Sequence record: NZ_CP103154.1
Origin: a plasmid
Length of the DNA stretch: 64,000 bases
Direction: 5' to 3' (one strand)
Each line of letters starts with the position of its first letter. Positions within the stretch are counted from its first letter, which is position 1. A program made the position numbers and the translations under genes. Of the stretch, positions 7,693 through 23,675 are shown piece after piece. The notes below the pieces were generated by a model that worked only from the letters and a program-made list of their open reading frames with translations, ran no database searches and was not told the origin of the DNA.

Positions 7693-8934
7693 TTGTCATC
7701 TGTAATCGACTCAACCCTCGGTCTAAGGTGTAGATCGTTAGGTTATCAGTACAGCGAAATCATCCGTTCTCTCATGAGTATCTACTTCTGTGGTGGCTCA
7801 TGTATTGAGGATGTCACTACTCATTTGATGAACCATCTCTCGCTTCATCCGACACTTCATACTTGTAGTTCTGATACTATCCTCAGAGCGATAAAGGAAC
7901 TGACGCAAGAAAACATCTCATACACATCAGATACGGGTAAGAACTACGATTTCAACACGGCTGACACTCTCAATACTTTACTGCTCAATTGTATGTTTGC
8001 ATCTGACCAACTGAAAGAGGGTGAGAAGTATGATGCAAAGCCTACATACAAGAAGTTCTCTGGTTATCGCCCTGGCGTGGCGGTTATTGGTGACTTGATT
8101 GTTGGCATTGAGAATAGCGATGGTAACACAAAAGTTCCATTTCATGGCACGTTTTCTCGCCATGGCAGAGCTTAAGTAAACTTAGCTCTGCTCATCTGGC
8201 TTAACGAAAACCTTCGTTTTCATCAGAAGGACACGCTGAAGAGGTTCTTTGAGAGATTTGAACAGAACAGGCTCACTATCAATCGTTTCAGAGCTGATTG
8301 CGGATCATGTTCCGAGGAAATCGTGGAGGAAATAGAGAAACACTGCAAGTCCTTCTATATCCGCACTAACCGCTGCAGTTCGCTCTACAATGACATATTT
8401 GCTCTCAGAGGCTGGAAGACTGAGGAAATCAATGGCATTGAGTTTGAATTGAACTCTATCCTTGTTGAGAAGTGGAAGGGTAAAGCATACCGACTTGTGA
8501 TTCAAAGACAGAAACGGATGGATGGTGTGCAGGATCTTTGGGAAGGAGAATACACATACCGTTGTATCCTGACTAACGACTATGAATCTTCCGTAAGAGA
8601 AATTGTCGAGTTCTATAACCTTCGTGGAGGAAAGGAACGTATCTTTGATGATATGAACAATGGTTTCGGGTGGGACAGATTGCCCAAATCCTTCATGGCC
8701 GAGAACACTGTGTTCCTTCTTCTTACAGCACTTATCCGTAACTTCTACAAGGCCATTATCCAAAGACTTGACGTAAAGAGGTTCGGACTCAATGCAACAA
8801 GTCGCATAAAAGCGTTTGTCTTCAGGTTTATCTCTGTACCAGCCAAGTGGATCAGGACATCAAGGCGGTATGTGCTGAATATCTATACCTGTAACAATGC
8901 TTACGCAGATATTTTTCAGACTGATTTTGGATAA
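7693..8934 (+). pseudogene. IS1380-like DDE transposase with in-frame TAA stop at 8173-8175 (two ORFs in the same frame); TTG start, N-terminus probably also truncated
   Basis: ORFs 7693-8175 and 8176/8323-8934 share one frame separated only by TAA; C-terminal YNLRGGKERIFDDMNNGFGWDRLP transposase-like block. Confidence 0.65.
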
Positions 8935-9048: not shown

Positions 9049-9441
9049 ATGAGAGGACGTGTACACGCAAGAAGGACGTTGAAGGGCTTAGTTGCGGATT
9101 TGAGGCAGGTAAGAAAATACAAAGAATTAACAGCAACCGAGAAACTGAAATACCGTATCGCAGTGAAAATGACGGCAGCCGACTACTTCCGCCTGCTGAC
9201 ACGATCGCATGAGGCGGGCGTATCACCAAGCGAGTACATGAGGGAATGTTTCCGTAACGGTCATGTGAAAGAACGGCTGTCGGAGGAACATGCCGGATAC
9301 ATCCGCCAACTCTGCGGCATGGCTAACAATCTCAACCAGCTTGCGCGTAAGGCAAACGCCGGAGGCTTCCACGATGAACGGTGGGACTGCAAGGTGGCAG
9401 TGGCAAGGATTCATGAACTTATAACCAAGATAGGGATATGA
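9049..9441 (+). CDS. mobC: MobC-family mobilization (relaxosome accessory) protein
   Basis: LCGMANNLNQLARKANAGG matches the MobC GxxNLNQxAxxxN signature; overlaps relaxase start by 4 bp. Confidence 0.75.
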   Translation: MRGRVHARRTLKGLVADLRQVRKYKELTATEKLKYRIAVKMTAADYFRLLTRSHEAGVSPSEYMRECFRNGHVKERLSEEHAGYIRQLCGMANNLNQLARKANAGGFHDERWDCKVAVARIHELITKIGI

Positions 9442-10379
9442 TGGCGAAAATCGTAAAAGGAAGCGACTTCAAGGGTGCGGTGGATTACATCATCGACAAG
9501 AAGAAGGATACGCAGATAGTAGCAAGCGAAGGCTTGTTTATGGAAAATCTGGAAACTATCGCCATGAGTTTCAATGCCCAGTCACGGATGAACGATAAGG
9601 TGACAAAACCTGTCGGACATATCGCGTTGAGTTTTTCCAAAGAGGATGAGTTACGGCTGACGAACCGTATCATGGCAGGCATCGCGCTTGAATATATGGA
9701 ACGGATGGGAATCAAGAATACGCAGTTCTTCATCGCCCAGCATTTCGACAAGGAGCATCCGCACGTGCATATTGCTTTCAACCGCATAGACAACAACGGC
9801 AATACCATATCGGACAGGCACGAGCGTCTGCGCAGTACCCGCATCTGCAAGGAATTGACCTTGAAATACGGCTTGCATAGCGGAAAGGACAATGTCAAAC
9901 GCAACCGCCTGAAAGAGCCAGACAGGACGAAATATGCGCTTTACGACATCATCAAAATGGAAGTCGGCAGATGCGGCAACTGGAACGTGCTTATCGCCAA
10001 CCTGAAACGGCAGGGAGTGGAAGTACATTTCAAGCATAAGGGGCAGACCAGCGAGGTGCAGGGTGTTGTATTCTCCATGAATGGCTACCATTTCAACGGC
10101 TCCAAAGTGGACAGGCGTTTCAGTTATTCCAAGATTGACGCGGCTTTGCAGCACAACAGATGCAGGGAACGTATGGGAATAACAGCCGGAATATATGAAA
10201 CGGCTACACCAAGCGCACCGTCCGGCACGGCACAAAGCGAGTTGTTCAACGGCTCTTGGGGATTGCTAAAAAGCAGTGGCTCATCTTATAACACTGCTGA
10301 TGCGGAAGCCAATCAGGAAATGGTGGATATACTTCGCAGAAGGAAGAAAGTTAAGCGCAAGAGAGGTGTTGGGTTCTAA
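9438..10379 (+). CDS. mobA: MobA/VirD2-type relaxase (mobilization nuclease)
   Basis: MAKIVKGSDFKGAVDYI N-terminus, HPHVHIAFNRID 3-His motif. Confidence 0.8.
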   Translation: MMAKIVKGSDFKGAVDYIIDKKKDTQIVASEGLFMENLETIAMSFNAQSRMNDKVTKPVGHIALSFSKEDELRLTNRIMAGIALEYMERMGIKNTQFFIAQHFDKEHPHVHIAFNRIDNNGNTISDRHERLRSTRICKELTLKYGLHSGKDNVKRNRLKEPDRTKYALYDIIKMEVGRCGNWNVLIANLKRQGVEVHFKHKGQTSEVQGVVFSMNGYHFNGSKVDRRFSYSKIDAALQHNRCRERMGITAGIYETATPSAPSGTAQSELFNGSWGLLKSSGSSYNTADAEANQEMVDILRRRKKVKRKRGVGF

Positions 10380-10400
10380 TATTCTGTACTAATCCAATTC

Positions 10401-11060
10401 TCACGACACTTGCGCTCTATATTCATTCGGAGTGTAACCTACCTCTTTCTTGAACAGTCGGGTAAAATGTTGCGGGTACTGAAAACCGAGATTATAGGCG
10501 ATTTCATTAACGGTGTCGTCTTGTAGATGCAAGTTCCGTCTTGGCTATTTCAATAGACTTGTCATGAATGAAATGCAGGGCGGTTGAACCTGTTTCTTTT
10601 TCAATAAATCACTGAAATAGTTGGGCGAGAGGCAGAGCTTGTCTGCACAATACTGTACAGTGGGCAAGCCTATCCGTTTAGCAGCCCCATCATGGAAGTA
10701 TTCGTCAAGCAACCGCTCAAATCTTGCGAGGATGTCTCGGTTTTGGTTGTCGCGTGTGATGAACTGACGGTCATAGAAACGTGTGCAGTAATCAAGGAAC
10801 GTCTTGATGCTGTCTGTGATGAGGTTCTTGCTGTGACGGTGTATCGGATGGTTCAATTCATATTGAATCTTGTGGAAGCAATCCATGATGATTTGCCGTT
10901 CTTCCACACTAAGGTGCAATGCCTCGTTTGTCTCGTAGGAAAAGAACGAATATTCACGCATTATCCGCCCGAGAGGTGTATTCCGCAGCAGGTCGGGATG
11001 GAACATAAGCAGGTAGCCATCTGGTTGGAACTGCATGCCGTCATCTTCCGCACCGAACAC
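10401..11060 (-). pseudogene. AraC-family regulator, frameshifted (N-terminal ORF 10545-11060; C-terminal HTH IAYNLGFQYPQHFTRLFKKEVGYTPNEYR in another frame 10401-10545) and 5'-truncated
   Basis: Own translation of minus strand in two frames. Confidence 0.6.
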
Positions 11061-11083
11061 CTGTCCGGGCGCGATAAATATCA

Positions 11084-11272
11084 GTGTGCATAATTATTCC
11101 TAAGTCTGTGAAACCGGAACGCATGAAGCAGAATCTCGACATATTAGACTTCACCCTGTCGGCCGACGACATGGCACGGATAAAGACGCTGGATACCGAC
11201 AAGCCTTTCTTACTCGGCTCGCACGAAGATCCAGAAATCGTAAAATGGTTCATGCAGTACAAAAACGCCTGA
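11084..11272 (+). pseudogene. orphan 3' fragment of an aldo/keto reductase gene
   Basis: IPKSVKPERMKQNLDILDFTLSADDMARI is the AKR C-terminal signature; no upstream body. Confidence 0.55.
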
Positions 11273-11319
11273 ACATCAACAACCATATTTCGATAGCCGC
11301 TATCGACTATATTAAGAAG

Positions 11320-12219
11320 TTATTCGTATATGCCTTTATTGTAATCCGTCATGTACTGAGTAAATGTTTTGCCTGTTTGCTGTTTGAAGAAGCGCATGAG
11401 ATGGCTCGGATCAGAGAAATTGAAATCATCCGCCATTTCACTGACAGTGCGGTTGGAGAATAGCAATTCGTTCTTCAGTTCCTCAAGCAGACGTTGTTTT
11501 ATCAAATGGGTAGCTGATACTCCGAATTGGGCTTTTACTGAGTTATTGAGTGTGATGCGACTGACATGAAGCATGTCTGCATATTCCTGCACCCGCTGGT
11601 GGGTGCGGATATTCTGTTCCAACAAGTCCTTGAACCGAAAAGCGAAATTGTTTTTAGCAATTTCAGCGGGCAAGCAATAGGCGGCAGCGTATGTACGATT
11701 GATAATCAGCAAAAGATAATATAGTAAGGAAACAATGATATTGTACGTATCGGACACTGGATTCATCAGCTCATACTTAATCTTTCCGAGCAGCCGCATA
11801 TATTCCTTCATTTCGTCATGTGTGGCATTGATGTAAGGCGGCGTATCTGTCTGGTAACAATACAAAAGGCGAAAAACGAAGAACTTGTCGGCGATAAAAG
11901 TACGCATGAAATCTTCGCGGAATATAAGGAACGTGTAATCCAACGCCGTCTCATCTACATGCCACTCTTGTTGCTGATGGGGTGAAAGCAGGAGAACCAT
12001 GCCGTCGCGCAGTTCAATCTTGCGGAAGTTCAGTAGCAAATATCCGTTTGCCTTACGGAAAAAGTAGAAGCTGAAGAAGTCTGTCTTAAACCGCTTGTTT
12101 TCTGTCAGCACAAGTCCGATGTCCTTGTTTATGGCAGTATTGATGTAAAAATCCACGCCGCAGCGTGTCTTGTTGAACGGTACGCTGACCAGTCGATCAG
12201 GGTTGATTATCTCGTCCAT
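11320..12219 (-). CDS. AraC-family transcriptional regulator (intact, 299 aa), divergent from the MBL/radical-SAM operon
   Basis: C-terminal double HTH (ITLNNSVKAQFGVSATHLIKQRLLEELKNEL...FNFSDPSHLMRFFKQQTGKTFTQY). Confidence 0.85.
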   Translation of the reverse strand: MDEIINPDRLVSVPFNKTRCGVDFYINTAINKDIGLVLTENKRFKTDFFSFYFFRKANGYLLLNFRKIELRDGMVLLLSPHQQQEWHVDETALDYTFLIFREDFMRTFIADKFFVFRLLYCYQTDTPPYINATHDEMKEYMRLLGKIKYELMNPVSDTYNIIVSLLYYLLLIINRTYAAAYCLPAEIAKNNFAFRFKDLLEQNIRTHQRVQEYADMLHVSRITLNNSVKAQFGVSATHLIKQRLLEELKNELLFSNRTVSEMADDFNFSDPSHLMRFFKQQTGKTFTQYMTDYNKGIYE

Positions 12220-12349
12220 ATCCTTGTCGTTTTTGCAAAGATAATAATTTCATTTATCAAAATGGCATAATTACCGTTTTTTCAGGCATAGATGTTTCGC
12301 CGGATTCTTCCGAACTTTGCACCCGTAATCAATAACAAGACATATAGTC

Positions 12350-13126
12350 ATGAAAAAGACATCTACAGTACAATTGGTGCGCAATGCCACCTTGAAAATC
12401 AGGTATGCGGGACACACCATGCTAATTGACCCCGTTTTAGCCGACAAAGGCACTTTGATATCGGCCCTCGGTGTGAATAAAACACCGAGGGTACACCTCA
12501 CCATTCCTATTCAGGATATTATCGGAGGCGTGGACATGGTGCTCCTGACCCACAATCACATCGACCATTACGAGCCGAGTGTCCCCACACATTTGCCCAA
12601 AGAAATTCCTTTCTACGTTCAGCCCCAGGACGCGGACGCCATCAGAAACGACGGATTTACAAATGTGATACCCATCGAAGAAATAAAAACAATAGACGGC
12701 ATATCCATTTACCGCACGACCGGACATCATGGTTTCGGGCAGATCGGGCAGATGATGGGACCTGTATCAGGTTATGTGCTAAAAGCCGAGGGCTTCCCGA
12801 CCGTTTATATAATGGGTGACTGCCGATGGGAAGCATGTATCCGAGACACCGTGGAACGGTTCAATCCTGACTATATCGTGGTAAACTCCGGAGGTGCAAT
12901 CTTTCCCGAATTTTCCAAAACGGACGGTCCTATCATCCCCGACGAGAACGAAGTGATGCAGATACTTGACGAATTGCCTTCGCATATCAAGCTGATAGCC
13001 GTACACATGGATGCCATCGACCATTGCCAGACCACCCGTGCAATTCTGCGCAATGAGGCAACGCATCACGAAGCCGACATGAGCCGGCTGATTATCCCGG
13101 AGGACGGAGAAACAGTTGTGTTATGA
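12350..13126 (+). CDS. MBL-fold metallo-hydrolase
   Basis: LLTHNHIDH (HxHxDH) motif plus downstream His/Asp ligands. Confidence 0.8.
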   Translation: MKKTSTVQLVRNATLKIRYAGHTMLIDPVLADKGTLISALGVNKTPRVHLTIPIQDIIGGVDMVLLTHNHIDHYEPSVPTHLPKEIPFYVQPQDADAIRNDGFTNVIPIEEIKTIDGISIYRTTGHHGFGQIGQMMGPVSGYVLKAEGFPTVYIMGDCRWEACIRDTVERFNPDYIVVNSGGAIFPEFSKTDGPIIPDENEVMQILDELPSHIKLIAVHMDAIDHCQTTRAILRNEATHHEADMSRLIIPEDGETVVL

Positions 13127-13791
13127 GTGTCTGCATTAAATCCCTGATAAAAAACATGAACATAGTGGTAGGGTGCACTATAGGATGCCCTTACTGCTAT
13201 GCCCGTAACAACTGCCGCCGTTTCCACATTACCGACGACTTTTCCGTGCCTGAATACATGGAACGAAAACTGCGCATCATCGATACGTCCCGTCCTCATG
13301 TGTGGCTCATGACAGGAATGAGCGATTTCTCCGATTGGAAGCCTGAATGGAACGCAGAAATTTTCGAGCGGATCAGCAGCAATCCCCAGCACGCCTATAT
13401 CTTTCTGACGAAGCGCCCTGACAAAATCAGTTTCTCCTCTGACGACGAGAACGTATGGATGGGCGTGACCGTTACGCGCAGTTCCGAGAAAAGGAGGATT
13501 GATGATTTGAAAAAGAATATCAAAGCACGACACTACCATGTCACGTTTGAACCTCTCTTCGATGATATCGGCGAGATTGATTTCGAGGGAATTGACTGGA
13601 TTGTCATAGGCACAGAGACCGGAAACCGAAAAGGAAAGTCATATTCGCGCCCCGAATGGGTGCTTAGCATTGCAGAACAGGCAAAGGCTCATGGCATACC
13701 GGTGTTCATGAAAGAGGATTTGCTGCCGATTATGGGCGACGAAAGAATGATTCAGGAATTGCCGGAACAATTTACCAGACGAATACAATGA
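13123..13791 (+). CDS. three-Cys (CxxxCxxC) radical-SAM-like protein, DUF5131/phage Gp37-Gp68-like
   Basis: VVGCTIGCPYCYA motif near N-terminus; ATGA overlap with both neighbours. Confidence 0.6.
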   Translation: MSVCIKSLIKNMNIVVGCTIGCPYCYARNNCRRFHITDDFSVPEYMERKLRIIDTSRPHVWLMTGMSDFSDWKPEWNAEIFERISSNPQHAYIFLTKRPDKISFSSDDENVWMGVTVTRSSEKRRIDDLKKNIKARHYHVTFEPLFDDIGEIDFEGIDWIVIGTETGNRKGKSYSRPEWVLSIAEQAKAHGIPVFMKEDLLPIMGDERMIQELPEQFTRRIQ

Positions 13792-14663
13792 ATATGGATA
13801 CAATAAAGGAAATAGATGTAAAGAGTGTAATGACCAAATCCTCTCTGCCGGTGGGAGGATATTCGGTCAACCCTTATGTAGGGTGTCCCCACGCCTGCAG
13901 GTATTGCTACGCATCGTTCATGAAACGGTTCACCGGGCACACCGAGCCGTGGGGTACGTTTTTAGATGTAAAAAACTGGAAGCCGATAACGAATCCTCAT
14001 AAATACGACGGTGAACGTGTTGTAATAGGGTCTGTGACGGACGGTTACAATCCGTATGAAGAAGAATTCCACCGTACCCGAAGGCTGCTCGAAGAGCTGC
14101 GAGGAAGCGATGCCGAGATTATGATATGCACAAAGTCCGATCTTGTCCTTCGCGATCTCGACCTGTTGAAGAGTTTTCCCAAAGTGACTGTGTCATGGTC
14201 TGTCAATACGCTCGACGAGCAGTTCTGCGCAGATATGGACAACGCCGTAAGCATTGAACGCCGTCTGAAAGCGATGCGTCAGACATACGAGGCAGGTATC
14301 CGCACCGTATGCTTCGTCTCGCCCATATTCCCCAGAATAACAGACGTAAAGGCAATAATAGAGGAGGTAAAAGATTATGCTGATTTAATCTGGCTTGAAA
14401 ACCTGAATTTACGCGGGCAGTTCAAAGGCGGGATAATGACGTATATCCGTGAGAAGTATCCTGACCTCATACCGCTTTACGAGGAAATTTACAATAAAAA
14501 AAGGCTTGAATACTGGCAGGCATTGGAGCAGGACATTTCAAATTACGCCAAGGAGCAGGGCTTCCCGTATCGTATAAACGATCTGCCATACGGACGCTCG
14601 GAAAAAGGCAAACCTGTCATCGTAAACTACTTCTACCACGAAAAAATACGATTGACAAAATGA
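13788..14663 (+). CDS. radical SAM protein, SplB/spore-photoproduct-lyase-like (COG1533-type)
   Basis: YVGCPHACRYCYA motif; size and layout of SPL-family rSAM. Confidence 0.7.
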   Translation: MNMDTIKEIDVKSVMTKSSLPVGGYSVNPYVGCPHACRYCYASFMKRFTGHTEPWGTFLDVKNWKPITNPHKYDGERVVIGSVTDGYNPYEEEFHRTRRLLEELRGSDAEIMICTKSDLVLRDLDLLKSFPKVTVSWSVNTLDEQFCADMDNAVSIERRLKAMRQTYEAGIRTVCFVSPIFPRITDVKAIIEEVKDYADLIWLENLNLRGQFKGGIMTYIREKYPDLIPLYEEIYNKKRLEYWQALEQDISNYAKEQGFPYRINDLPYGRSEKGKPVIVNYFYHEKIRLTK

Positions 14664-14678
14664 GGCTATGCCGGACTG

Positions 14679-15191
14679 ATGCAGAAAAGTTGTAGCGCGG
14701 ATAAAAGCACCATGTATGTGGATAATATCCGGCAATCTTCCGAGCGTATGCGGGAGATGCTCAACACGCTGCTGGATTTCTTCCGTCTGGACAACGGCAA
14801 GGAGCAACCCAACCTTTCCCCTTGCAGGATTTCCGCAATCACGCATATTCTTGAAACGGAGTTCATGCCCATTGCCATGAACAAGGGGCTGACTTTGATA
14901 GTGGAGAGCCACACCGATGCGGTGGTTTTGACCGACAAGGAACGTATCCTGCAAATCGGCAACAACTTGTTGTCAAACGCCATCAAGTTCACGGATAACG
15001 GTAGTGTATCATTGGCAGCGGATTATGATAACGGTTTGCTGAAACTTATCGTTGAAGATACCGGTACGGGCATGACCGAAGATGAGCAACAACGAGTATT
15101 CGGTGCATTTGAACGTCTTTCAAATGCCGCCGCAAAAGACGGCTTCGGATTAGGCTTCCTGCAACCAGCCGTTATCCAACAGCCGGGTTAA
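14679..15191 (+). pseudogene. 5'-truncated sensor histidine kinase fragment (HATPase_c only)
   Basis: NLLSNAIKFT (N box) and EDTGTGM (G box); no HisKA/sensor region upstream. Confidence 0.6.
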
Positions 15192-15429: not shown

Positions 15430-16068
15430 TCAGCTACTAATGAAGTCTTTTTTTACTTGTTGTATCGTCGAAACGGCCTTTCCCGTGAGCTTCGCCACGT
15501 TCCGGATCGAGTAGCCTTTCTTTAACAAGGCGATCGCCTCCCGGTATTCCTCTTTCCTCTGTTCGGCCGTTTTCCGGCTTCCCGGCTTCCGTCCCAGCCT
15601 GCCCCCTTTCTGGATGTACAACTCCCGTCCGCTATTAAGGCGGTCGATGATCCCCTGGCGTTCGATCGCGGCCAGTTCCCCCAACAGGGTAGTGATCAGA
15701 GAGGACAAGGGGTTTACCGTCTTGTCCGGCCGTAACGTTTCCAGGTTCAGGTTTTGAATATACACGCATATTTTATGCGTGTGCAGCGTATCGAGTGACT
15801 TTAGGATCTCCAGGGTTGAACGCCCCAGGCGTGAGATCTCGGTCAGCAACAACATATCCACCCGGTTCTGCGGATCTGTGCAGTATTCCAGGCAACGGCT
15901 TAAAACCGGGCGTTCGATATTGGCCTTTCGTCCGCTTATCTTTTCCTCAAAGACCGCCGTCACCTCGTACCCCCGTCCGGCTGCGAACCTCTCCAGATCG
16001 ACAACCTGCCGTTCGGTCGATTGCCTGGCCGACTGCGAGCTTACACGTGAATAAATAACCACATTCAT
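15430..16068 (-). CDS. serine recombinase/resolvase with C-terminal HTH
   Basis: MNVVIYSRVSSQSARQS catalytic N-terminus, ISRLGRS motif. Confidence 0.8.
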   Translation of the reverse strand: MNVVIYSRVSSQSARQSTERQVVDLERFAAGRGYEVTAVFEEKISGRKANIERPVLSRCLEYCTDPQNRVDMLLLTEISRLGRSTLEILKSLDTLHTHKICVYIQNLNLETLRPDKTVNPLSSLITTLLGELAAIERQGIIDRLNSGRELYIQKGGRLGRKPGSRKTAEQRKEEYREAIALLKKGYSIRNVAKLTGKAVSTIQQVKKDFISS

Positions 16069-16251
16069 CCCTTTTGCTTTTGTTCTTCCTTATCTATTGT
16101 TTTAATCACCTTATCCACCTCTTTCAAGGAGGCATTATTTCCGGATCTATCCAAAAAAGAAATTCGCTAATTAACCTATAATTACTATCTTTGCATTGTA
16201 ATGCTTGGTAAAGCCTCTGTTATCAAAACACGTAACCAAGTCAAGGATATA

Positions 16252-16280
16252 CCCGTTCATCAAGAACGGGTTTTTCTTTT
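16252..16280 (+). terminator. rho-independent terminator (cccgttc atcaa gaacggg + tttttctttt) on + strand
   Basis: Hairpin plus T-run; possible 3' end of a small + strand transcript starting near 16194. Confidence 0.5.
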
Positions 16281-16309
16281 GCGACAGCCCATTCATAAGA
16301 CAAAGGATA

Positions 16310-17146
16310 TTATAACAGGTCAGTAATCACAGCCGCCGGAATATCCAGCTTTGAGAAAGCGAACATCTTTTTCCCCAGATCCTTTAACGAGGCTCCGATA
16401 TGGTACACGTCCGTTTCATCAACGATCAGGAAACGGTCGTGACTGTCCCGGTACGTCCTGATGTCGATAGGTGGGTACTGGCTGTTATGCCTGTCAAGAT
16501 CAAGTTGGAGTTGCTGCGTGATACGCTGGGTGTAAATGGTGGCCGAGACACCGACGCTGCGTTTACTCAACATGAGCAAGACCGTTTCGTCCACATAGTT
16601 GTCGATAAGCACGATCGAACGCCTGGCCGACTTTACCAGATCGGTAGCGAACTTGTACGCATCGAAAATCTGGCCGTTATAAAAAATGCCTTCGACCGGG
16701 GGCAAGGCAGTACGCACAAAAAAATCTATCTTCTCGGTATGTTGAGCGACAGTCCTTTCAAGTTCTGACAAACGTTTATTAATGGAATACCCTTTTAAAA
16801 GATAGTCCTTTAAAACCTTATTCGCCCATTGCCTAAATAAAATACCTCTTTTACTATTGACACGAAACCCAATGGATATGATCGCATCCAAATTGTAATA
16901 AGTCAGATTGCGCATCACTTGCCGTTTGCCTTCCTGTCGAACTGTTCGGAAATCCCGAACAGTTGAACTTTCCTCTAATTCTTTCTGATCATATATGTTT
17001 TTTATATGCTCGCTTATATTTGCTTTGCTGGATTGAAAAAGATCCACAATTTGCGCCTGTGTCAGCCAAACGGTTTCATCTTCCAGCCTCACTTCCAACC
17101 TGACCGCTTCATCCGGCTGGTATAATATGATTTCTCCCTGTTCCAT
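16310..17146 (-). CDS. RhuM-family (virulence RhuM-like) protein, intact 278 aa
   Basis: IILYQPDEAVRLEVRLEDETVWLTQAQI N-terminus typical of RhuM family. Confidence 0.8.
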   Translation of the reverse strand: MEQGEIILYQPDEAVRLEVRLEDETVWLTQAQIVDLFQSSKANISEHIKNIYDQKELEESSTVRDFRTVRQEGKRQVMRNLTYYNLDAIISIGFRVNSKRGILFRQWANKVLKDYLLKGYSINKRLSELERTVAQHTEKIDFFVRTALPPVEGIFYNGQIFDAYKFATDLVKSARRSIVLIDNYVDETVLLMLSKRSVGVSATIYTQRITQQLQLDLDRHNSQYPPIDIRTYRDSHDRFLIVDETDVYHIGASLKDLGKKMFAFSKLDIPAAVITDLL

Positions 17147-21807: not shown

Positions 21808-22305
21808 TCAGTTCTCCCCCAAATAAGGGCTGTCCTGGTTTTCCAAACGGACGATCTTCTCCAACAAACGAAGGACATCCTCCCTCTCCGGAACATTCAC
21901 ATCCGCTCTCACCATCGTTATAAGTCCGTTCCAGTCGCTTCCCGAAAAATGAAAATCCTTCTCCAATACCGGAATCTTTATATAAGGTGATATATACCGC
22001 CACAAAACCTCTGCTCGTTTTTCAGACAGCCTTCCATTCAACAGCCCCCCTCCTTCCGGGGAAGCTCCTCCTATTATTTGAATTTTCCTGATAAGACGGA
22101 CGGAGTCGTTCAATGCGGAACAGATTTTAGCAAACCGCTCCATCTCGTTCCCATTGTCAAGTAAACATGTATCTATATTTACCTTTCCTTGATGAAAATA
22201 GATCCTTACCGAATCACGCTTCTCCTGAGCGGATATTTCTCCGCTTATACTCAACACGAGCACGAACAATACACATTTAATATAAAAAAAACATCTTTTC
22301 GTCAT
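21808..22305 (-). CDS. OmpA-like secreted protein, first gene of fimbrial operon
   Basis: Signal peptide; GGASPEGGGLLNGRLSEKRAEV resembles OmpA-C peptidoglycan-binding motif. Confidence 0.5.
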   Translation of the reverse strand: MTKRCFFYIKCVLFVLVLSISGEISAQEKRDSVRIYFHQGKVNIDTCLLDNGNEMERFAKICSALNDSVRLIRKIQIIGGASPEGGGLLNGRLSEKRAEVLWRYISPYIKIPVLEKDFHFSGSDWNGLITMVRADVNVPEREDVLRLLEKIVRLENQDSPYLGEN

Positions 22306-22539
22306 TTAATCATTTGTTAATATGACAATCCAAACCCAGGCTTTTACACCCCCCTGAATTTCAACCGCTAAAGATATGCACTTATAAACCAACCTCCAAA
22401 GCAAAAAACAAGTATTTTAAACTTATAAATACTTAAAAAGACAACCACACAACAGCTACAACACTTACCACAGCAGCCAATCACGCTTACACAACAATTA
22501 AAAACACTTAACATCATAAAGAAAAGTACTTAAACATAC

Positions 22540-22558
22540 AAAAAAAAAAAAAAAAAAA
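22540..22558. repeat. A19 homopolymer in the divergent promoter region between fimbrial operon and LuxR-type gene
   Basis: Directly followed by TATTTTTG (matches Bacteroides -7 TAnnTTTG) at 22563-22570. Confidence 0.85.
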
Positions 22559-22567
22559 CAGTTATTT

Positions 22568-23675
22568 TTGCAGGAAACATTATACTTAATAACACTTAAA
22601 ACAATAAAACACATGAAAATCAGCACAAAAGCCGCCTCTTTTCTAAGTTCAATAAAAACTCAAACTTACGACAAAAAAGAAAGAGAAATGATAATAACGT
22701 ATCAACAAAAACGAGTCTTTCATCTATCCCTGCTCATGCTGGTCTTATGCGCACCCATATACATATATTCAGTTCCATTTCCCAATGAACAGTTTTATTA
22801 TATTAACAGCGTATTATTCCTGTTTATCATTATGTGCACTCTCGCTTATTTTAAAAAGAGAGTAAATCTGACCACGACCTTTTCCATTATACTGATAGCC
22901 ATACATATCGAGATTTTTATCGAAATAATTTATTGCTCAATATGTAGCGGATATGAATATAGTTATCAAAGAGCATTGATAATGAGTAACATTACTATCT
23001 CTCTCTTATTTACCATGCTTTCCATCTGTGCCTATATGAGTAATATCTCCATCCTATTGTCCTCCCTTACCATAGCTTCCTATACAATCTGCACACTTAT
23101 CACCGACGAACCGTTCCTATACAGTTATCTGCCTTTGATCATCATCATATACACCATGATCCCCTTATTAGGAAGATCCTTACACAGTAATATCAGCAGC
23201 TTGCTAAAAAGTAGCAACTTGCTAAAAGAGGAAGAGGAAATGCTTTTGAAACGTCTCCAAATGAAAAAGGAAGAACTATTCGCGTTCGCCGAGTTGTTAA
23301 GCGAGAATAACCCGGAAGAAAAGACAAGCTCCCTGTTAAACATAATAGGGGGAACAATCCAAAGAAAATCTTTTTACAGCCCTTGCCGCATACCAGAAAA
23401 AGGAAAAAAGTAAACTTGATACAATCAGGAGAATATATCCCAATTTATCCCCGTCCGAATTAAACATCTGCCGTTTAATACTGCAAGACAAGACCGTCAG
23501 CCAAATATGCGAATTATTACATCGGAGTAGCGGAAACATAACCAGCCAACGAGCGAACATACGTGCCAAACTCGGACTAAAAAAAAGCGACAATTTAAAA
23601 GAAGCATTACAAGAACGCATGAGGCTGTATGAAGAAGAAGAACACCGGCAAGAAGAGTTTTCAGCCATGCGTTAG
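22568..23675 (+). pseudogene. LuxR-type regulator (multi-TM sensor domain + C-terminal GerE/LuxR HTH) split by +1 frameshift at ~23400 (likely true start ATG 22613)
   Basis: HTH LSPSELNICRLILQDKTVSQICELLHRSSGNITSQRANIRAKLGL lies in another frame 23412-23675, open upstream into the TM ORF. Confidence 0.6.

Follow-up and report, generated by a model that had tools for sequence, protein, structure and literature searches.

What could hold two radical S-adenosylmethionine (SAM) genes, a metallo-hydrolase gene and a divergent AraC regulator together on a gut plasmid? The question is raised by a cassette at positions 11320–14663 of a 64,000-nucleotide stretch of plasmid record NZ_CP103154.1 (the window, to which all coordinates refer). 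We find that the cassette is catalogued and uncharacterised, its AraC/metallo-beta-lactamase (MBL) form being a variant of the radical SAM mobile pair system, and we propose, with about an even chance of being right, that it is an inducible stress or xenobiotic-defence operon in which one regulator governs two mobile modules that can occur apart. The window is the gut Bacteroidales plasmid pMMCAT: the 3344-bp cassette is at least 99.8% identical in 23 PLSDB plasmids from at least 12 species of Bacteroides, Parabacteroides and Phocaeicola, most of which are ~98 kb and carry that name. The cassette comprises:

11320–12219, minus strand: AraC/XylS-family regulator, 299 aa, divergent from the operon
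12350–13126, plus strand: MBL-fold hydrolase, SaxA family by homology, 258 aa, with the motif LTHNHIDH
13123–13791, plus strand: radical SAM mobile pair protein A (DUF5131 subfamily), 222 aa, GCTIGCPYCYA, with CxxxCxxC at C18/C22/C25
13788–14663, plus strand: radical SAM mobile pair protein B, 291 aa, GCPHACRYCYA, with CxxxCxxC at C33/C37/C40
13123–13126, plus strand: MBL/A stop/start overlap ATGA (gttATGAgtg)
13788–13791, plus strand: A/B stop/start overlap ATGA (acaATGAata)

These gene calls, their motifs, the divergent AraC gene and the ATGA geometry of translational coupling, all described in an earlier note on this DNA, were reproduced by the open-reading frame (ORF) list and the sequence, and the recurrence of the 3344 bp in the 23 plasmid records, together with A–B pairs in at least 80 species genomes, argues that the cassette is not a chance pattern. 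Protein A matches NCBIfam TIGR04471 over its full length (456.1 bits against a cutoff of 355, positions 1–220 of 220) and protein B likewise matches TIGR04470 (605.5 bits against 410, 1–285 of 285); each belongs in full to its curated equivalog of the 'radical SAM mobile pair', and RefSeq names the four products 'AraC family transcriptional regulator', 'MBL fold metallo-hydrolase', 'radical SAM mobile pair protein A' and 'B'. The earlier note had presented the two radical SAM genes as an unrecognised combination, a view that has to be given up since they are already curated by NCBIfam as A/B equivalogs, annotated in RefSeq and mentioned in a preprint on pMMCAT; the preprint offers functional guesses only, 'resistance to toxic molecules' among them. 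The same note's remark that no characterised pathway combines the three enzymes agrees with the literature, in which we found no functional study under the mobile pair names or TIGR numbers, DUF5131, COG4422 or Gp37Gp68. Pfam places protein A in both DUF5131 (PF07505, 115.9 bits against a threshold of 28.9) and Radical_SAM (PF04055, 33.2 against 29.5), protein B in Radical_SAM above the gathering threshold (64.3 bits) and the MBL protein in Lactamase_B_2 (42.5 bits) and also Lactamase_B_3. New here are the SaxA homology of the MBL protein, the modularity of the cassette over 80 genomes, a putative conserved operator and promoter, and the finding that the likeness of B to spore photoproduct lyase (SPL) is confined to the fold level.

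A conserved pair with separable partners

A profile search with B returned more than 590 relatives in contigs drawn from one genome per species, of which the best 80 loci were tallied (tblastn counts). In all 80 the B protein is at least 67% identical to that of the window, and the loci span Bacteroidota, Bacillota, Actinomycetota (Collinsella, Atopobium), Spirochaetota (a Treponema) and Chloroflexota (an Anaerolineaceae metagenome-assembled genome), a conservation across phyla that fits horizontal transfer. Gene A lies intact and directly upstream of B in 62 loci and is cut by a contig end in one, whilst in ~17 it is missing, truncated, frameshifted or stop-interrupted beside a full-length B. 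The loci with a broken or absent A and an intact B are L013, L015, L017, L018, L024, L035, L037–39, L046, L049, L060, L067, L068, L070, L076 and L078. The protein matches, too, include alleles in which a deletion has taken the C-terminal end of A (P0004, P0007). That A has been lost repeatedly and B kept suggests that B is the core enzyme.

What surrounds the pair varies. A recognisable regulator stands immediately upstream in 75 of the 80 loci, belonging to MarR in 24, TetR in 18 (mostly Collinsella), AraC in 14 (all Bacteroidota), HxlR in 11 and Rrf2 in 7, with HxlR and TetR together in one. Three accessory genes recur (the first two as Pfam families): Cupin_2 in 14 loci, Flavin_Reduct in 12 and an adjacent SaxA-like MBL gene in 11, the last exclusively in Bacteroidota. 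The earlier note had treated the three enzyme genes as one unit and proposed their co-conservation as the test; the A–B part of that unit stood, whereas the MBL gene is adjacent in just these 11 loci and occurs with the same AraC where the pair is lacking. In three such loci AraC–MBL–Cupin_2 lies beside a Mob gene on a small integrase-bearing element (L088–90), and the order AraC–MBL–Cupin_2–A–B is common (L091–93, L002), with the 4-nt A/B overlap also present in L091–93. A–B is thus the conserved core and the MBL gene a separable add-on.

Other neighbours were seen around the pair. In the chromosomal loci L003–L006 a DUF386 gene is immediately upstream of A, and in four Bacillota MarR–A–B loci (L033, L040, L047, L063) a divergent HxlR/Cupin_2 unit lies directly past B. 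The cupin joins the pair in at least four arrangements across phyla, and its closest structure is the uncharacterised cupin 3CEW. IMG/VR contigs carry the same operon variants, several of them being pMMCAT fragments; six (L095–L099, L103) hold the pMMCAT cassette at 100% protein identity and are probably plasmid fragments classed as viral. Clusters at 90% identity are very large, with up to 26,758 member sequences.

The regulators that accompany the pair give a hint of what it answers to. The Bacillota MarR representative matches TIGR04472, the mobile pair system MarR regulator (291 bits against a cutoff of 240), and its next-best NCBIfam match is OhrR, far below cutoff. For the Rrf2 representative the best specific model after the generic Rrf2 superfamily is the redox-sensitive HypR, and for the HxlR representative the best matches are the redox regulators RrpA/RrpB, in each case far below cutoff. 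As a thematic lead, the mobile pair may typically be placed under sensors that respond to thiol-reactive oxidants or electrophiles, isothiocyanates being among such compounds.

A putative shared control unit in Bacteroidota

The cassette AraC protein carries a C-terminal double helix-turn-helix (HTH; Pfam HTH_18 61.7 bits, HTH_AraC 41.3 bits), and its N-terminus gives a weak AraC_binding match (16.6 bits, under the cutoff of 21.1). Its orthologues (50–82% identity) flank MBL and/or A–B in other Bacteroidota loci: where the pair is absent, in AraC–MBL–cupin(–Mob) loci, the AraC is 82% identical to that of the window, and the figure is 77% for AraC–MBL–cupin–A–B, 66–69% for AraC–A–B and 50% for the chromosomal DUF386–A–B–AraC arrangement; by this distribution it would be the cognate regulator of the MBL/A–B cassette type in Bacteroidota. 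We aligned nine divergent AraC–payload intergenic regions, whose AraC proteins are 65–82% identical. Mean column identity is 55% and four elements stand out; the features marked in the window are:

12236–12243, minus strand: putative Bacteroides -7 box for the AraC gene, TATCTTTG, of the TAnnTTTG type
12253–12269, no strand assigned: conserved operator-like element TTTATCAAAATGGCATA, first 16 bases invariant in the nine regions, candidate AraC half-site 1
12285–12290, no strand assigned: second GGCATA repeat, 21 bp further downstream, candidate half-site 2, which lies partly over the -33 region of the putative payload promoter
12310–12319, plus strand: putative -7-like promoter box CCGAACTTTG for the MBL–A–B transcript, ~30 nt before the ATG

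The invariant 16-mer TTTATCAAAATGGCAT (12253–12268) has a single exact copy in the whole window, GG[C/T]AT at the second repeat is kept in all nine regions, and TTTG within CCGAACTTTG is invariant, with its neighbouring bases conserved, in nine of nine; CAAAGATA falls in the conserved left part of the alignment. The Bacteroides -7 promoter consensus is TAnnTTTG. These cis elements are kept whatever gene follows, be it MBL, a 34%-identical MBL, A or B. We infer that the element pair is the AraC operator: two half-sites in direct orientation, spaced by two turns of the helix and overlapping the -33 region of a Bacteroides-type promoter, an arrangement that would have the geometry of an activator. 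A sigma-70 promoter scan gave background level only, its model not being applicable to Bacteroides, and an Rfam scan of 9–17 kb gave no riboswitch or RNA element. As one AraC sensor stands over MBL/cupin and A/B in any combination, these enzymes most probably answer the same signal.

A SaxA-like hydrolase and its likely substrates

The best PDB match of the MBL protein is 6BRM, 'metal-dependent isothiocyanate hydrolase SaxA' (E 1.1e-44, residues 9–256 against 5–257), followed by 3RPC (E 8e-36). It shares 36.7% identity with SaxA at 99% coverage, and the metal motifs align throughout: THNHIDH with THTHTDH, GHHG with GQHG, GD with GD, and HM..I.H with HM..I.H. SaxA enzymes convert isothiocyanates to amines and carbonyl sulfide, and a fungal enzyme 20% identical to SaxA keeps isothiocyanate hydrolysis (PMC7303113). 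In the sax system the hydrolase is accompanied by efflux pumps and a regulator; in another bacterium, contact with isothiocyanate induced regulators of the HxlR and AraC families along with quinone/nitro reductases (PMC12903958). The MBL protein thus appears to be a full-length SaxA-family homologue and is predicted to hydrolyse an isothiocyanate-type, thiol-reactive electrophile. An Alistipes orthologue (L094) is encoded directly downstream of a resistance-nodulation-division (RND) efflux operon.

No signal peptide was found in the MBL protein of the window, which we take to be cytoplasmic. Three orthologues (~60% identity; L014:6509, L015:993, L091:5001) have predicted Sec-type signal peptides, for example MKKIFFLFLASLMTVTMVNA|QN, and the hydrolase would therefore be periplasmic in some cassettes and cytoplasmic in others. 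An exported hydrolase beside cytoplasmic Fe-S enzymes in one operon points to a diffusible, incoming substrate, and it also implies that MBL and A/B need form no complex.

As a rival explanation, the cassette might be an unrecognised, horizontally spread determinant of antibiotic or drug inactivation that aerobic functional screens would miss, radical SAM enzymes being oxygen-labile. This would account for a cross-phylum spread at 67% identity or more on plasmids, mobilisable elements and elements resembling integrative and conjugative ones, as well as for the size of the 90%-identity clusters; the MarR, TetR and AraC regulator types, the MBL fold and the RND efflux neighbour fit resistance too. 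The idea nevertheless strikes us as quite improbable: no NCBIfam resistance model was matched, known resistance genes were not linked in the loci examined and no drug class suggests itself, whilst the variation of regulator and accessory genes by lineage suggests long residence and rewiring rather than the recent sweep of a fixed unit.

Radical SAM proteins A and B

The CxxxCxxC motif is invariant on alignment in both A and B, which bears out the three-Cys cluster that the earlier note had read in the DUF5131-like protein, and neither alignment has a second conserved Cys cluster or extra Cys indicating a SPASM domain. The two proteins are distant paralogues over their first ~145 residues (hhalign probability 92.6%, E 4e-7), the profile alignment pairing TGMSD of A with GSVTD of B. 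RadicalSAM.org puts SPL, DUF5131 and MJ0683-like proteins together in Megacluster-5 (PMC9477430). A natural frameshift allele of the pMMCAT sequence, recorded on nine contigs (P0003), fuses A and B in frame and is compatible with joint action of the two.

Sequence and profile searches of the PDB with A and B gave nothing useful, the profile search with B reaching SPL at E ~0.1 over 27 residues of the cluster loop only. The AF2 model of B is of high confidence (mean predicted local distance difference test, pLDDT, 91.8) and its top Foldseek match is SPL (E ~1e-7, TM score 0.54, root-mean-square deviation 4.5–5.2, 17–18% identity), with SuiB, LipA, NifB and the pyruvate formate-lyase activating enzyme among further neighbours and a fold-level likeness to SkfB too. 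The SPL-specific models (Pfam SPL PF20903, NCBIfam/TIGRFAM SPL) do not match B, so that the label 'SplB-like' given to it by the earlier note holds for the fold and fails for the sequence. The model of A is of medium to low confidence (pLDDT 66.6, below 50 in the cluster loop), and a Foldseek search with it against the PDB gave no significant match; the matches returned are non-significant and TIM-barrel-like. Isoelectric points (pI) are near-neutral for both proteins, and pI and charge do not discriminate DNA binding.

The fold of B raises the possibility, which we consider unlikely, that A and B repair damage to nucleic acid or protein, B reversing, with the help of A, a covalent lesion, for instance a crosslink or the adduct of an alkyl group or electrophile, through the 5'-deoxyadenosyl radical under anoxic conditions; MBL, cupin and flavin reductase would then be parallel first-line detoxifiers under the same stress regulator. 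SPL as the top solved-structure neighbour of a confident model speaks for this, as do the NCBIfam families nearest to B after TIGR04470, PA0069 and Rv2578c, which we take to be traditionally annotated as DNA-repair photolyase-like. The most direct pointer is P0266, found among the 50%-identity representatives of B relatives: this protein of 548 aa shares 49% identity with B (TIGR04470 337 bits) and has at its C-terminus an HhH-GPD domain closest to the 3-methyladenine DNA glycosylase MagIII (PDB 1PU6 E 1.3e-15, PRK13913 E 4.7e-23), a fusion that would tie a B-like enzyme to alkylated-DNA repair. Only one such sequence was found, however, a metagenome scan giving no second copy, and a MagIII-like gene was near none of the ~170 fetched loci. 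Regulators of redox- and electrophile-sensing types and very high cross-phylum conservation, which fits a universal substrate, can be counted for repair, but those regulators are not of SOS or Ada type, A and B have near-neutral pI, no SPL-specific model matches B, the recurrent accessory genes all encode small-molecule enzymes and some MBL orthologues are exported.

A more specific form of this reading combines the SPL-like fold, the MagIII-like fusion and the electrophile/redox regulators: the mobile pair would be an O2-independent repair system that directly reverses the damage done to nucleic acid by electrophiles or alkylation, a radical SAM counterpart of the AlkB-type dealkylases, and would have spread horizontally among gut anaerobes and in Bacteroidota joined an isothiocyanate-type hydrolase under one AraC sensor. 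AlkB-type dealkylases are O2-dependent and unusable by strict anaerobes. Taken jointly, these claims are in our judgement a long shot.

Roles in anti-phage defence, anti-defence or natural-product biosynthesis, namely of ribosomally synthesised and post-translationally modified peptides (RiPPs), appear very improbable. Protein A matches PADLOC PDC-M30B and PDC-M41B at ~1e-32, there are PHROG families for all three enzymes and copies occur in IMG/VR contigs; the PADLOC matches, though, reflect generic DUF5131 similarity (TIGR04471 gives 1e-137), B, MBL and AraC have no PADLOC match, the 'viral' contigs hold the same regulator–A–B operons with several being pMMCAT fragments, and small-molecule one-component regulators are atypical for defence systems. 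A fold-level resemblance of B to the maturases SuiB and SkfB would suit RiPP biosynthesis; against this, the neighbourhood showed neither a conserved precursor peptide nor a protease or transporter, and no extra conserved Cys of the SPASM kind is present.

Three specific assignments were tried and rejected. For PADLOC PDC-M30 or PDC-M41 membership, A is the sole protein to match, and only the 'B' component models; RiPP maturation lacks SPASM cysteines, precursor and transporter; and against a role as glycyl-radical activase, the recurrent neighbours included no glycyl radical enzyme.

Proposed function

Under the stress or xenobiotic-defence reading the operon, located in an imported 6-kb mobilisation-plus-cargo block, would work as follows. 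The AraC gene, the 16-mer, the second GGCATA and the -7-like box would form a conserved control unit that drives varied Bacteroidota payloads (MBL+cupin, MBL+A+B, MBL+cupin+A+B, or A+B alone). AraC would sense a small molecule and activate transcription, and the ATGA overlaps would couple translation of MBL, A and B. The SaxA-family MBL, judged by its homology, would destroy an isothiocyanate-type, thiol-reactive electrophile; that some orthologues encoded in such operons bear signal peptides implies a small molecule arriving from outside as the substrate of the MBL protein. A and B, distant paralogues with one CxxxCxxC site each, may apply SAM-derived radicals in the cytoplasm to the same class of threat, B presumably as the core enzyme and A as an often dispensable partner. 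The likelier role of A/B would be transformation of the toxin or a derivative, and the less likely one reversal of its covalent damage; that their chemistry is a small-molecule transformation is, in our estimate, about a toss-up.

Several observations weigh against this proposal. A is lost or broken in ~17 of 80 loci with B intact, which makes any function of the 'pair' not obligatory, and an MBL gene confined to 11 of 80 loci says little about the role of A/B in most lineages. An identity of 37% to SaxA leaves the MBL substrate unfixed, and we know of no role for radical SAM chemistry in the detoxification of isothiocyanates or electrophiles. The solved fold nearest to B is that of a DNA-repair enzyme, and the one B-like protein fused to a MagIII-like DNA glycosylase favours macromolecule repair over small-molecule chemistry. 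The inducer classes, finally, come from the regulator families alone, all of whose NCBIfam matches but TIGR04472 are far below cutoff.

The imported block and its flanks

The surroundings of the cassette hold three larger features:

9132–15157, no strand assigned: imported 6-kb block with most of mobC, the relaxase gene, both AraC units, MBL, A, B and the 5' part of a kinase gene
10545–11272, no strand assigned: decayed divergent pair, an AraC-family remnant (minus strand) and an aldo/keto reductase fragment (plus strand)
14679–15191, plus strand: truncated sensor histidine kinase, 170 aa, both ends cut, starting 15 nt past B

The block is 99.7% identical over 6033 bp to two loci in non-pMMCAT contexts (L008, L012), in both of which the kinase is intact at 429 aa and homology stops at 15157; this common block supports the view, put forward in the earlier note, that the genes are imported cargo, and both flanks that it had named, the decayed AraC/aldo-keto reductase remnant and the truncated histidine kinase, were found as described. 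MobC and relaxase are annotated in L001, and the relaxase of the window has a Pfam match of 128.7 bits. The minus-strand ORF at 10545–11060, of which RefSeq calls a longer version an AraC-family regulator, has no HTH match in Pfam and no similarity to the cassette AraC (blastp E <= 1e-3), and the plus-strand ORF at 11084–11272 is a 62-aa C-terminal fragment of an aldo/keto reductase (Pfam positions 256–289 of 291), a decayed unit that weakly matches the electrophile theme. The kinase fragment retains part of HisKA (profile positions 33–66 of 66) and part of HATPase_c (2–77 of 111). Similarity to L008 and L012 ends within the kinase gene, beside a resolvase gene. Directly past 15157, at 15430–17146, are genes for a RhuM-family protein and a 212-aa resolvase of the serine recombinase type, whose position suggests that site-specific recombination made the junction.

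Elsewhere in the window, two successive plus-strand ORFs at 7693–8934 (160 and 203 aa), upstream of the MobC and relaxase genes, resemble a split transposase. The segment 58436–59514 has 72.6% DNA identity to the end of L002 (MT838243), which encodes a 373-aa minus-strand ORF; we take this ORF for a relaxase/Mob gene and, if so, pMMCAT has a second such homologue. MT838243 was deposited as 'UNVERIFIED bacteriophage' and looks like a mobilisable element, not a phage. The G+C content drops to ~0.34, against ~0.45 elsewhere, at 22000–23500, with strongly negative GC skew, and this is the fimbrillin/DUF5119/DUF3575 area in L001.

Implications and comparison with known systems

The A/B pair belongs to the commoner mobile gene sets of gut metagenomes that have yet to be characterised, and single clusters at 90% identity contain over 10,000 sequences. 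A SaxA-type hydrolase under the shared regulator points to isothiocyanate-like dietary electrophiles as candidate inducers, and were the MBL protein an isothiocyanate hydrolase, a very widespread human gut plasmid would influence what becomes of sulforaphane and other dietary products of glucosinolates. The conserved putative operator and promoter offer an experimental handle, and natural variants without A, without the pair or without MBL are ready-made controls.

Against the NCBIfam mobile pair (TIGR04471/TIGR04470/TIGR04472), the window agrees in having A and B above cutoffs, adjacent, co-oriented and overlapping, on a mobile element and in near-identical copies across species. It differs in lacking the MarR regulator (TIGR04472), with AraC and its own conserved, putative operator instead, and in carrying a SaxA-like MBL gene upstream of A in predicted translational coupling. 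From DUF5131 and phage Gp37-Gp68, with which protein A shares PF07505, phrog_2045 and the three-Cys motif, A is set apart as a member of the TIGR04471 subfamily that is paired with B and a regulator and is not in phage genomes. SplB (PDB 4FHC and related) has the solved fold nearest to B, but B has no sporulation context and measures 291 aa against SPL chains of 338–340 residues. The sax system of Pseudomonas and Pectobacterium shares with the cassette the full-length MBL homology, a regulator and, beside one orthologue, RND efflux; whereas sax hosts are plant-associated, the host of the window is an obligately anaerobic gut bacterium, in which the MBL gene is coupled to two radical SAM genes.

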